A DNA stretch of 64,000 nucleotides from Eledone cirrhosa (taxonomy: Eukaryota), in NCBI GenBank assembly GCA_964016885.1, contig OZ024742.1, forward strand, positions 200,198,001-200,262,000. Reading direction: 5' to 3'. The notes below the pieces were generated by a model. That model had not been told where the DNA came from and searched no databases. It saw only the letters and a program-made list of their open reading frames with translations. Of this stretch, positions 4,346-49,610 are shown one piece after another. A program made the position numbers and the translations under genes. Each line of letters opens with the position of its first letter. Position 1 is the first letter of the stretch.

Positions 4346-4544
4346 GTAATAATAATAAATTTGAAGACTAAAATCCAAAGAGGGCTCGATAAGGATAAAT
4401 ATATATCAAATATATAAGAACCGTAGAGCAAATATTTATTAAAATAACAGATTAAAGTTTAAGCAAAGAATCGCTGGTTTCACCCTTAACGGGATCTTCT
4501 GAAAGCAGCGATTCTTTGCTTAAACTTTAATCTGTTATTTTAAT
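4346..4544 (-). mobile_element. Short fold-back Penelope-type element with hammerhead remnant, inserted in (TA)n
   Basis: Reverse complement of 40510-40728 with the same ends. Inverted arms at about 4437-4484 and 4500-4545. Confidence 0.7.
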
Positions 4545-5009
4545 ATATATATATATATATATATATATATATATATATATATATATATATATATATATAT
4601 ATATATATGTGTGTGTGTGTGTGTGTGTGTGTGTACACCTATATACCTATATACATATAAACATATCTCTCTCTCTCTACATATATATATATATAGCAAA
4701 CATCACGGGCGCTCTATCTCAAAATTATTTTTGAAAAGCATTAGAAATGCGCAACCGGTAAAAACTTAAAACTAAAACTGAATACTAACCAATACTTATT
4801 CCTAATTAAACTATTTTTCACTGGGAAAAATTTGTCACCATTTTCTTTTCTTTTTACTAATTTATCACAACTCGTGTGTTACACCTCTATTCTTTTAAAT
4901 TTATATATATATATATATATATATATATATATATATATATATATATATATATATATATATATATATATACGATATTAACAAATGGAAACTATATTTATAA
5001 AACCATATT

Positions 5010-5074
5010 TATTTCATTATACACATTTCAAGGACACCAAGTTAAATTATGGTGTGCTTTCATCAGATAAAATA
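5010..5074 (-). ncRNA. Type I hammerhead ribozyme (Penelope-type, family H1)
   Basis: Minus strand: UAUUUUAU-CUGAUGA-AAGCACACCA..UGGUGUCCUU-GAAA-UGUGU-AUA/AUGAAAUA, giving an 8-bp stem I, a stem II and a minimal stem III. Homologues at about 24830-24895 and 48008-48070. Confidence 0.8.
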
Positions 5075-5869
5075 TAATATAGATCAGTTTTATAAATAAA
5101 TAATGACATACCCTTAAAAAATGCAAACATTACTGTTGGAAGGTCCCGGATAGTGGAGTTGTTTAATTATATTATTATTAGTATTGGATATTTTTATTTT
5201 TAAAATAAGCCGTTGGGTTATGTATGTATGTATATATATATATATATATATATATATATATATATATATATATATATATATATATATATATATATATATA
5301 TATATACATACATATATGTATATATATGTGCGCGTGTGTGTGTGTGTGTGTGTGTGTGTGTGTGTGTGTGTGTGTGTGTGTGTGTGTGTGTGTGTGTGTG
5401 TGTGTGTGTGTGTGTGTGTGTGTGTGTGTGTGAATAGGCATACATAAGTGAATATACTTGGCTAGTTCAAAACATGTCTGTTGCTATCAACAAGTTTACT
5501 TATAGCAAGATCCACCCAATTACCTTGTCTAAAATTGTTCCAAAAGATTTGGTTTAGCCCGGGCTACGAGAATTCCCTTGCTTGATTGATTCTTATTATC
5601 TGAATACCTCTAAAGACAGTTTCGGTTGAAAAAACGCAAAGATAGTCTTAGCTGATTGAAGTTTTCTTTTCCTTCTCATGATATTTAGACTGTGAGACTC
5701 GATTCACATTTATACATATTCACTTCATGAAGAGCACTTTCTTTACTTATGACAGCAGAGTGTGATTTAAAGGTGATTTGGTTGCTATTTTTAGTATGAC
5801 AAGTGACCACATACAGGAGCAACATTATGTAGTTATGCGTTTATGTGTTTATAAATATTTTTGTCTGTG

Positions 5870-6160
5870 AATGGTGAGCAACATGGCGGTATTATTAAGA
5901 AGTTTAATTTGCAAACATAAGAGATCGGGTTTGATACCACTGCATATCTTTAGAATTGTGAGTTACCAAAGCATTGTGAGTGAAATCCGGCGGATGGAAA
6001 CTATTCTGAATTCCGTCGGATCAATTGTACATGTGATTCAAATTGCCAGACTTTGTTACACACATGAGAATTACATTAAGGGTACACGTGTCTTTGGAAT
6101 ACTCAGCATATTAATTTCACGAGCAGGTTGTTCTGAACACTCATCGACGAAATCAACGTC
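5870..6160 (+). mobile_element. Decayed tRNA-derived SINE (second family)
   Basis: tRNA-like head (GGTTTGATACC) plus the body motif GAGAATTACATTAAGGGTACACGTGTC...TTAATTTCACGAGCAGG shared with 42450-42690. Confidence 0.6.
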
Positions 6161-7509
6161 TGTGTGCTTGCCCGCATGTGTAATGTACGTTTGTGGGTGT
6201 TTGTATATTTATGGATGCATGTATGTATTTATGCGGTTTTGCATTTGCATGTATGTATGCGTATTTATATGTGTGTGTGTGTGAGAGTGTATGTCTGTAT
6301 GTGTGTATTTATTTGTTGGTGGATTTTCTTTGTGTGTGTGTGTCTAAGGTTCTAACTTTAAATCTTACTGTGGCTTACTTAGGTGGTAAACGTAATATGT
6401 TGTTTGGTTTTAACACCATCACTGGCTATTGTGTGCCTTTAGTGGAGCCCAAACATTCAGGACAGGTCTCCGGTTTGAGAATACCTTCCTCCTTCTCGTT
6501 CAGCAGTCACTGAGGCCCTGAAACCTATTATGGGCAATGCTCTTCAGTCTCTGACTAACTCTTAATATCATGCAATAATTTAACAGAAAATGTCTAAAAA
6601 TGGGTTTACAGTATCCTTACTAAATTACATATCGTTGTTTAAATGTGTAATATTAGACTAAACCCTCTAATAATTAATGGGATGCAATCAATTATATAAA
6701 AAATGAGATACAAAAGAATTTAGCAAAAAATATCTAAAACGGTTTTTTTTATTTAATTCAAATGATTATACTATATTTACTTGTGAACAGATCATTGCAA
6801 AAATTTGTATTGATGGAATAAAGATTTCAGTTTTTAATTTGATAAAGCCACAGTGGTGTTTTGTACTTTATGGAATGTTTTGCCAATACAGTTTCATTGT
6901 TAAGAGCTAAACAAAAGAAACAAATTGTTTGTTTTTTCTCATTCATTTTATTTACATTTTGTTGTGATATAAAAACTTCAATGTTTACTGTGATACAATG
7001 ATAATGGTGTTTTGTATTTTCTAAGAATGTTTTACTCATGCAGTTTCATGATGCACAGAACTTTGAGTGTAAAAAAATACTCCGTTTCATTTTGTTATTT
7101 ACATTTTTCTTATGTGTATTTTTTCTTCTATATATTTTTCTTGTATAGTTCCTGATTTCACGCAAAAGGGACATAGTGAACCGGTTGTTGCGCGAGCGTC
7201 AAGCATCAGACCCCACATATATTCCCGAGGACAAGAAGGATGGTTGTATCTGGAATGTTATTACTTGCATGAAGAAGAAGAAATGAGGACCACATAGAAA
7301 ACGTAATGGAATAGAGACCATCAAAGCCAGGAGGACCTAAACCAACCAACAAACACACAAAATATGACGGAATCATTAATTATTATAATAAACAATTTCA
7401 ATTTACAAATAAAAACTTTTAAAAACAAAACAGAACGAAAATGAATTACAGTGCCATCCTCAAATTGAAGATCCATTGTTGTTGTTATTATTAATATTAA
7501 TCTTATTTT

Positions 7510-47475: not shown

Positions 47476-48007
47476 CGTGACAATAAATGAATAAGTAAAC
47501 GAATAAATATATAAACACCAACCCACTTATATCTGTAGGTATATTATATTCTAGTTTTTACGATGACAAACGGGCAGCCAGCAATGATATCATTTTTTTG
47601 ATGGTGTCTACACTGCTTTTGTTTGTATTTATTAATTTTTTCTTATATTTTGTTTCATCTTTTAGTCTATAACTTTCAAGGCATTGTTAGCTTTTATATT
47701 TAAACACATCCTTTCTGTTCAGTCTCTTACAATACTTACAATAGACACGTTCCCCATCACCCATCACCGTTTTTCTTTGGTAATATGTATACGTATATGT
47801 ACATATATATATATATATATATATATATATATATATATATATATATATATATATATAAGCAGAAGGGATATTCAATTTGTTGGTAATTCAACAGATATAA
47901 ATGTTTATAACTGATTCAGAGCACTCAACAGTTTCTATCCGCGGAAAACCCTGAACCGTTAAGGTATATTATCCTTGGTTATGTCAAAATTTATAAAACA
48001 CACTGCG

Positions 48008-48069
48008 TATTTTATCTGATGATAGCGTACCAAAATGTTTGGTACCCTTGAAATATATATAATAGAATA
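48008..48069 (+). ncRNA. Type I hammerhead ribozyme (family H1)
   Basis: UAUUUUAU-CUGAUGA-UAGCGUACCA-AAAUGUU-UGGUACCCUU-GAAA-UAUAU-AUA/AUAGAAUA. Confidence 0.78.
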
Positions 48070-48189
48070 AATATTGTTTTATAAATATAGTTTCCATTTA
48101 TTTAATATCATTGTATATATATATATACAATGTATATATATATATATATATATATACATACATACACACACACACACCTATATATATAT

Positions 48190-48408
48190 ATCGACAGTCG
48201 ATCGACTTCCATCAAATCGGACCGAGGAAACAATGTTTCCGTTGCTCTTTCCAATTGCTAATACTATCTATCGGTCGCAACTCCAGGTAGAAGGAGCAAC
48301 GTGAAATAAAGTGTCTTGCTCAAGGTCATAACACATCGCCCGGTTCGGGAATCGAACTCACAACCTCACGATTGTGAATCCAGTTCTCTAACCACTCAGC
48401 CACGCGCC
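48190..48408 (-). mobile_element. tRNA-derived SINE
   Basis: Minus strand GGCGCGTGGCTGAGTGGTTAG (A box)..GAGTTCGATTCC (B box)..CCTTGAGCAAGACACTT. Confidence 0.8.
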
Positions 48409-49561
48409 TATATATATATGTCAATATACATACATACACATATATGTGTGTGTGTGTGTGTGTGTGTGTGTGTGTGTGTGCGCTATGTGCGTGTGGGGGG
48501 GGGGGGGGTTGTGTGTGTGTTGTGTGTGTGTGTTGTGTGTGTGTGTGTGTGTGTGTGTGTGTGTGTGTGTGTGTGTGTGTGTGTTGTGTGTGTGTGTGTG
48601 TGTGTGTTGTGTGTGTGTGTGTGTTGTGTGTGTGTGTGTGTGTGTGTGTGTGTGTGTGTGTGTGTGTGTGTGTGTGTGTGTGTGTGTGTGTGTGTGTGTG
48701 TGTGTGTGTGTGCGTATGTTAGTTCTACTTTGATATTAACCGGCGATCTTATTTCCGACATTAGGTTCGGTTTTGAACAATCGTTTGACTCTTTTGTAAA
48801 TAGCTCCTTAGTTTATATCTGTTAGAACACGAAAAGTGTGAAACAACAGAATGTTCACTTTTCGTGTTCTAACATATATGCGTAGCTTCTTAAAAAATTT
48901 TTCGGGGATAGCCGTGGTGGTGGTGATCGTATGTCATTGGCTAATTTTCAACCAATCAGAGTACCTCTCTCTATATCTCTTCCACTGTTACTTACGCCTG
49001 TTTCTCTCTATCTGTTCCGTCTCTATATATATCTCTTACTCTTTCGCTTTGCACTCCTCCCCTTCAATACCATCTCTCCCCCTCTCTATATATTTGTTAC
49101 TCTATCGCTGCACGCTCCTCTCCTTCAATATATCAATTACACACGCTTTACACTCCTTTATCCCCAGCGCCCCTATATATACACCCCCCCCTCTCCCGCA
49201 TCTATATTTTAATGTACCGTTGCACCGTGAATATATGTGTCTATATATATATACATATATATTGTATATACACATTCATGTATGTGTATACACACTCATG
49301 TATGTATATACACTGGTTTTATGTGTGTATTGTAAATTTGTACTGTTAAAACACGAAACTAACATTCGATTGACACTTTGATTACCTGTACAGGCAATAG
49401 TTATTAGAATGCTGTTGAAGTGTGTATATATTTTTGGGGGACATCCTGTATATACACACATTATATATAATACAATAAACAGATAAATACACACATATAT
49501 ATATGAGCTTATTTAATTATAAATATTGTGAATTTTTAACTCAGTTCAATTATATATATAA

Positions 49562-49610
49562 ATGGTTTCTACAGGACTAGAACTGTTTCATTCGAAAGAA
49601 ATCATCATAA
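49562..49610 (-). ncRNA. Family H5 hammerhead, homology ending at the first core base
   Basis: Minus strand (A)UGAUGA-UUUC-UUUC-GAAU-GAAACAG-UUCUAGUC-CUGUA/GAAA, homologous to 35894-35940. Confidence 0.55.

Follow-up and report, generated by a model that had tools for sequence, protein, structure and literature searches.

Palindromic Penelope-like stubs at an Eledone cirrhosa locus: 5′ ends at a putative RNA start and probable joining of two cDNAs

Why do small palindromic elements embedded in microsatellites break so often next to a hammerhead ribozyme? The question is raised by a 64,000-nucleotide (nt) stretch of the Eledone cirrhosa genome, here called the window (assembly GCA_964016885.1, 3.0 Gb; contig OZ024742.1, our contig 3, 200.198–200.262 Mb). 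An earlier note on this DNA had described inverted and truncated copies of four families whose breakpoints fall on the ribozyme core, and had ascribed them to reverse transcriptase (RT) stalling at the ribozyme fold, with the complementary DNA (cDNA) then snapping back on a micro-palindrome. We analyzed the window and sampled the whole genome for family counts. The palindromes and one-armed stubs are short insertions of Penelope-like elements, probably formed when reverse transcription starting only 60–160 nt from a likely capped RNA 5′ end runs off it; in the palindromes, two such cDNAs are probably joined head to head.

Palindromes and stubs in the window

At every site named by the earlier note (40572, 4500, 24273/24323, 24521, about 22530, 35689, 35940 and 49607) the sequence is as described there, and all of the elements lie in or beside microsatellites. 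Palindrome centers are found at 40572 and 24521/2, inverted arms at 24273/24323, an arm pair near 22530 and stubs at 35940 and 49607. We assign these loci to family A (40572 and 4500), family B (24273/24323), family C (24521, 35689 and, loosely, 22530) and family D (35940 and 49607), and add a family E of five further hammerhead-bearing copies (5066, 24886, 32520, 33472 and 48016). Signed positions count from the inferred RNA start, and long arms differ from short arms by a 3′ tail.

4346–4504, minus strand: family A long arm, start at about +3 as read from the sequence
4500–4543, plus strand: family A short arm, start at +25, with a 5-nt microhomology shared with the long arm
4970–5165, minus strand: family E arm (core 5066) reading through the initiator-like motif 88 nt upstream, a counter-example to core coupling
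22486–22580, no strand assigned: diverged C-like head-to-head pair adjoining (GA)n, parent not found
24117–24285, minus strand: family B long arm with tail and type I hammerhead motif (core 24273), start about 12 nt before the core
24286–24310, no strand assigned: filler between the family B arms, containing a short inverted copy of the core region
24311–24418, plus strand: family B short arm (core 24323), then (TA)n
24467–24523, minus strand: family C short arm, start at +2
24520–24656, plus strand: family C long arm, start at +2, with the 3′ half of the hammerhead only; in the parents the 5′ half lies upstream of the promoter motifs
24797–24935, minus strand: family E arm (core 24886), end about 50 nt upstream of the core
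32332–32600, minus strand: E-like arm (core 32520), extending at least 75 nt upstream of the core
33400–33556, plus strand: E-like arm (core 33472) that forms the inverted counterpart of the 32520 copy and extends at least 72 nt upstream of the core
35683–35799, plus strand: single long arm of a family C subfamily, start at about +5
35876–35940, minus strand: family D single short arm inside (TA)n, start at +3, which is 4 nt before core 35936
40512–40575, minus strand: family A short arm, ending at the short 3′ end and starting at +4
40569–40726, plus strand: family A long arm with a tail of about 85 nt and a degenerate hammerhead core (U4 read as A); the joint cuts the 5′ strand of stem I
47858–48113, plus strand: family E insertion with an arm whose start, +2 of the initiator-like motif, lies 77 nt before core 48016; an inverted tail-like piece is joined to the arm
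49556–49606, minus strand: older family D single arm, start at +8

Several details of the earlier description change on closer inspection. The element at 24521 does lack the CUGANGA half of the hammerhead, as had been said. The copy at 35689, however, does not start inside stem III; its real start lies near 35683, and GAAA and stem III were lost by internal deletion. Near 4500, the long arm reaches the neighborhood of the core as claimed, but the short arm ends well inside, over its microhomology. The five copies of family E (5066, 24886 and 32520 on the minus strand, 33472 and 48016 on the plus strand) were not listed in the note; all extend at least 50 nt past the core. Hammerhead families were absent among the 150 matches listed, of 265, in an Rfam scan of the window, which were mostly microsatellite-driven microRNA rows together with two transfer RNA (tRNA) rows.

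Parents and copy numbers

Full-length parents were found by following copies that read through the breakpoint region. In the family C parent (L181), a 786-codon open frame stands between two pseudo-long terminal repeats (pseudo-LTRs), with an inverted copy in addition. That of family D (L193) has a 758-codon frame and two direct pseudo-LTR copies, and that of family A (L190) a broken frame, with pseudo-LTRs in partial tandem and an adjacent inverted copy. Both intact open reading frames (ORFs; 786 and 758 codons from stop to stop) contain YRDD as well as a motif resembling GIY-YIG. Identity between the C and D proteins is 49%, so the four families are not mutually unrelated as first supposed. 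ORF pieces related to these proteins lie upstream of family E arms in six of six fetched regions, and upstream of one B-like arm.

A Pfam search of nine ORFs, including the RT-endonuclease ORFs, gave no match, nor did a PDB sequence search with the family C protein; the best of 2,054 homologues has a Pfam GIY-YIG domain. DKT, the CxCx5C linker, CxxC and CxH are present in both intact ORFs, GxKF/Y is absent, and RWR stands at the RWK position. The copies are flanked by (TA)n, as are Hydra-clade targets. Judged against the definition in the available text of PMC8557442, the elements fit endonuclease-containing (EN+) Penelope-like elements with Hydra-clade motifs. The earlier view of the pieces as Penelope-like pseudo-LTR fragments with type I hammerheads is right.

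Putative type I hammerhead motifs occur in families B, D and E. The family A hammerhead is degenerate in most copies, with A replacing U4 and, at the foot of stem II, a U·U pair. On the minus strand at 40573, CUGAAGA is a product of the junction and not the parental core, which is usually CAGAAGA. Exact genome matches number 82 for the canonical family A core vs 2,626 for one subset of the A form, and a canonical-core parent, our first guess, was discarded as a minority form. Since family A is dominant and highly amplified, its spread was not hindered by a ribozyme that is likely weak or dead. On one arm the family A junction rebuilds a canonical core, without stem I.

Exact 3′ anchors count 25,525 arms of family A genome-wide, 27,021 of C, 12,678 of D, 37,819 of E and 1,150 of B, and reversed control patterns of these anchors gave 0 matches genome-wide. 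Each family has two 3′ ends, a short end and a tail end about 70–85 nt further on, and both lie upstream of the ORF start, hence also near the transcript 5′ end. Many stubs comprise one arm only. Target-site duplications are unreadable inside (TA)n. At L013, L021, L049 and L102, stubs of different families are adjacent in one (TA)n tract, each insertion leaving the next target.

The earlier note had proposed a separate class of palindromic ribozyme retroelements. This is not supported, because junctions vary by copy, many stubs are one-armed and full-length RT-endonuclease parents exist. Whereas non-LTR retrozymes are head-to-tail tandem units, each with a complete hammerhead, the copies here are single or head-to-head; one short tandem was seen (L116).

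Position of the 5′ ends

Arms were kept only if they had a recognizable 3′ end (69 of 78 hits in family A, 94 of 125 in C and 53 of 66 in D), and their alignment to the parents excluded loci chosen for their 5′ structure. Among the uncensored arms, ends between −5 and +12 of the inferred start account for 24 of 62 in family A, 59 of 92 in C and 24 of 48 in D, whereas a constant stop rate would place 8.0%, 9.4% and 8.3% in this 18-nt interval (P = 2e-11, 1e-37 and 5e-14, respectively). The interval was chosen after the data were seen, but P values of this size withstand any reasonable correction. When the first 100 matches listed were tallied by hand, 43 family A ends fell at the start region; family D had 43 such ends, 42 read-throughs and 15 ends elsewhere. 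Just upstream, between −30 and −6, the family A stop rate is 0 in 525 nt. The earlier observation that breakpoints pile up is therefore sound for A, C and D, where clustering is strong, but their position follows the likely RNA start and not the ribozyme core.

The hotspot is an initiator-like motif, preceded by a TATA-like box at −29 in family C and −30 in family D. Many ends also carry an extra base, often a G that matches neither the parental sequence nor the target. Among the first 100 of 2,626 family A matches, with 21 read-through rows set aside, the 79 junctions at +1 with a non-parental base have G in 53, A in 19 and C in 7; stem I of this family would template A, not G. Family D junctions in pure A/T flanks (first 100 of 213) have G in 44, C, the parent base, in 23, T in 18 and A in 15. 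In L1, an extra G is the mark of capped full-length insertions, according to the available text of PMC11702581.

Two further features of the junctions were seen. Many family C junctions have a T run directly before +1 that is longer than the parent's, and slippage at the template end is possible. In family A, 4 of 44 short arms share a junction at −49 and the same few letters upstream of it; L075, L076, L116, L227 and others have this junction, which would fit either a re-mobilized chimeric stub or a second start site.

Several observations weigh against a capped transcription start at this motif. We infer it from the DNA alone, which is itself a point against it; a search of public sequencing runs listed no RNA run containing the elements, a result that does not bear on expression. 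The sample of arms comprises those that match first on contig 1, with incidental copies added, and so falls short of the full set. A clear TATA box is not seen in family A and the box is variable in E. In family C, G is found in only 10 of 21 non-T rows; in family D, the extra G could be templated by the 3′ strand of stem I; and in about 15–20 of the 53 family A rows with G, it could derive from the partner arm. In family B, an older family, breakpoints are scattered genome-wide and a hotspot could not be placed; the inverted arms at 24273/24323 are present as the earlier note had it.

The hotspot motif in A, C and D can also be read as a 3′ splice site, with a pyrimidine-rich run and YAG, which counts further on that side. 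The hotspot would then be the 5′ end of a processed RNA, made by splicing or by ribozyme cleavage, and not an initiation site; the available text of PMC4209133 describes a Drosophila Penelope intron that ends at the 5′ end of helix I. We regard this as quite unlikely, however, since many junctions retain the AG and add G before it, a constant upstream exon is not seen, and the initiator-like motif of family E lacks AG. Ends within 3 nt of the cleavage site are also rare (0 of 68 in A, 3 of 94 in C and 2 of 51 in D), although the A and C anchors overlap the cleavage site and so bias against ends exactly there, a caveat that weakens this last argument.

Position of the hammerhead

Start and ribozyme coincide in families A and D: the first base of the putative RNA, +1, is also the first base of stem I, which would explain why the hammerhead lies near the breakpoints. 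Family E separates the two. None of its 67 arms ends between −9 and +22 of C3, whereas 15 of 67 end at the initiator-like motif 79–90 nt upstream of C3 (25 of 100 by hand tally). These figures have their own adverse side, in that 2 of the 15 motif ends come from read-through copies belonging to a subfamily without a reference, and the variable stem II caused about four family E alignments to fail.

Family C presents a third arrangement. Its +1 lies inside loop II of the hammerhead, and a U3-A8 variant 5′ half lies upstream of the TATA-like box. A first reading of family C as having no hammerhead was dropped once this half was found upstream of the promoter motifs. Across 12 read-through copies, all four bases occur at N7 of the core, and a second C subfamily has a co-varying stem II in about 10 listed copies, as predicted before the search. 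The three-way fold is the minimum free energy structure, yet its fold energy is unremarkable (z −0.66), and a clean hammerhead fold was not obtained for a decayed copy of the second subfamily or for the L140 copy.

These positions bear on the mechanism proposed in the earlier note, in which the hammerhead fold halts RT and the one cDNA made then snaps back. The hotspot does touch the core in A and D. In these two families, nevertheless, RT has already traversed the fold when the cDNA ends, 5′ of it; in C the ends fall in loop II, where an RNA starting at that point has no hammerhead; and in E they lie 79–90 nt upstream, with no arm ending at the core. An extra G would also be unexpected at a stall, and further speaks against it. 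Together with the evidence from paired arms given below, this makes stalling with snap-back very unlikely.

Head-to-head pairs

The inverted 5′ ends are real, and micro-palindromes do act as joints, as the earlier note had proposed. Among 54 typed pairs, 53 consist of one long and one short arm, one of two short arms and none of two long arms, so that the tail is on one arm only in 53 of 54; a further 17 pairs have one untyped arm. In the 53 long and short pairs, it is the short arm that extends further 5′, by at least 4 nt, in 21, and the long arm in 8; in the other 24 the two end within 3 nt of each other. In the 21, the short arm has 5′ sequence and the long arm tail sequence, each absent from the other. 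Because a snap-back copy must be contained in its template, these pairs cannot come from one cDNA. The 24 pairs ending within 3 nt are compatible with snap-back, and the use of short palindromes at joints favors it; self-priming was also proposed for rotifer palindromic junctions in the available text of PMC3846280.

The joint at 40572, TTC-W-GAA, offers a further distinction. A long cDNA that snapped back would have to form a 1-nt loop, and the long arm would then invariably carry A. Among the first 100 of 548 matches, the counts at this base of the long arm are 45 A and 55 T. Such an even split fits repair of either strand at the central mismatch of a 6-bp pairing that two cDNA ends would form. 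Within-pair divergence of the arms is lower than divergence across loci in family C (3.0% vs 9.2%) and family D (0.9% vs 4.3%), in keeping with one donor and probably a single RNA. Family A tells against this, its paired arms being no closer than arms across loci (4.0% vs 3.2%).

Two joined cDNAs could also arise with the position of their ends set by repair through palindromic microhomology, or by later collapse of longer inverted insertions, and not by the RNA start. Long palindromes are unstable, which favors such a collapse; one joint recurs at least 548 times, and many pairs overlap by 1–8 nt. Against this, arms without a partner that abut (TA)n end at the same base, with the extra G, and family A has no ends just upstream of the hotspot. 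We consider this account unlikely.

The palindromes might instead be non-autonomous masters, each spreading as one unit. The full 215-nt element is matched at 92–100% by at least 40 loci, and the recurrent −49 junction of family A is of the kind expected. A self-replicating palindrome, however, would pass on a fixed junction, whereas the junctions here are heterogeneous, differing even between near-identical copies, the pivot base is evenly split between the arms, and the stubs lack an upstream promoter, which leaves whole-unit spread highly improbable. Finally, palindromes in (TA)n are prone to assembly or fold-back sequencing artefacts, but the arms here are unequal, 1–4% divergent and differently flanked. 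Contigs of the public run X1, which may be the source sample, contain joints of an inverted to a direct arm at many positions (15 shown of 79). Across four runs the contigs showed no more than that such joints are present, and none from X5 aligned. An artefact is hardly credible.

Proposed mechanism

The joining of two cDNAs that have run off an RNA 5′ end, which we consider the probable origin of the palindromes and stubs, could proceed as follows. Transcription would start at the +1 motif, and the endonuclease would cut both strands of (TA)n. In the 5′ pseudo-LTR copy, one DNA end would use the short site for priming and its partner the tail site, both probably on the same RNA. This RNA would be copied uncleaved by its hammerhead, as the rarity of ends near the cleavage site suggests. 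RT would run off the RNA 5′ end at the cap. Host end joining would then trim the two cDNA 3′ ends to a microhomology, followed by fill-in; where one end only is primed, a single stub would result. According to the available text of PMC11167929, a Penelope-like protein in vitro cuts and extends both DNA strands on an uncleaved RNA template and uses two internal start sites that bound the tail, and a dimer is predicted.

A more specific proposal is two-headed insertion, in which a single capped RNA offers each cut end a fixed priming site of its own, combined with a family C promoter placed in loop II such that only read-through RNA folds and cuts. We put this forward tentatively, with a little less than even confidence. 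If it is true, two-headed insertion would account together for the one-sided tail, the 5′ copy in inverted orientation and the abundance of tiny stubs, and the origin of tandem and inverted Penelope-like structures is named an open question in the available text of PMC8557442. Family C RNA from its own start could then neither fold the ribozyme nor self-cut, and a hammerhead completed only by read-through transcripts would suggest what these ribozymes are for. The resulting junction rule (long arms pair with short ones, their ends fall at the RNA start, and the central mismatch is repaired evenly) would tie the in vitro start sites to genomic anatomy. The tens of thousands of young stubs amount to a natural experiment on junctions, and the pattern predicts start sites for four families.

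Other features of the window

Broken ORF pieces at 29382–30422 and 28235–29027 (both minus strand) and at 15862–17892 are 35–55% identical to the family C protein by tblastn and are decayed Penelope-like copies. At 20774–21307, head-to-head arms of 193 nt, 83% complementary, surround a short (TA)n; each contains a tRNA-like segment (20878–20948 and 21133–21203 by Rfam; tRNA-Ser by ARAGORN), and the pair is possibly a tRNA-derived repeat inserted in the same two-armed manner. A 203-nt unit at 62873–63540 is present in 2.7 tandem copies and an inverted copy; we take it to resemble a common repeat of the short interspersed nuclear element (SINE) type. The 313-codon open frame at 56211–57149 (plus strand) has no Pfam match and is likely a host exon. 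A near-perfect 112-nt hairpin at 57290–57401 consists of non-repetitive sequence and was not matched to families A–E.

Comparison with known systems

These are elements of a known kind, and the reading by RNA start site and two primers was found in no paper within the searched literature. Inverted 5′ copies, one-sided tails, hammerheads, (TA)n targeting and junction palindromes are already published (PMC8557442, PMC4209133 and PMC3846280), as is an internal pseudo-LTR promoter (PMC2377424); these and the papers compared below are taken as far as their available text goes. In a literature search that covered few subscription journals, we found no paper in which Penelope 5′ ends are connected with the RNA start or the two DNA ends each have a start site of their own, and none that describes a promoter within hammerhead loop II.

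In overall structure there is a close likeness to the Hydra-clade elements of PMC8557442. Both have a single ORF (about 720 amino acids) with DKT, the CxCx5C linker and CxxC/CxH but no GxKF/Y, a pseudo-LTR hammerhead, (TA)n targets, an inverted 5′-truncated copy and a tail at one end. Unlike that clade, the elements here have RWR in place of RWK, tails of about 70–85 nt instead of 30–40, and tens of thousands of stub arms per family. Minimal Penelope hammerheads (PMC4209133) are similar in being type I, in including a U3-A8 core variant, in forming opposite-strand pairs 100–700 bp apart and in the many solo motifs, but the text available to us contains no breakpoint analysis and no loop II of 30–40 nt with promoter motifs such as that of family C. 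The animal non-LTR retrozymes (bioRxiv 10.64898/2026.07.22.740005) are likewise small, hammerhead-bearing, non-coding derivatives of pseudo-LTRs, but are head-to-tail with a whole hammerhead per unit, whereas the stubs described here are single or head-to-head and their hammerhead is often cut.

The Penelope elements of Adineta vaga (PMC3846280) share head-to-head arms, a tail on one arm, TATA and initiator motifs in the pseudo-LTR and solo pseudo-LTRs. Their palindromes were read as self-priming on an antisense template, whereas the asymmetry of the arms here favors two cDNAs. Twin priming in L1 (PMC11702581) is alike in that the second DNA end primes a second cDNA, the joint has microhomology and full-length 5′ ends carry an extra G; in L1, however, each cDNA represents a different portion of the RNA and the second priming site is variable, whereas here both starts are fixed and the arms overlap in sequence. 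The Anolis Poseidon element, studied in vitro (PMC11167929), belongs to another clade, and its available text does not assign start sites to DNA ends, describe inverted junctions or link the 5′ end to the RNA start. It nonetheless parallels the proposed mechanism, with two internal RT starts bounding the tail, both strands cut and extended, and a template that remains uncleaved.

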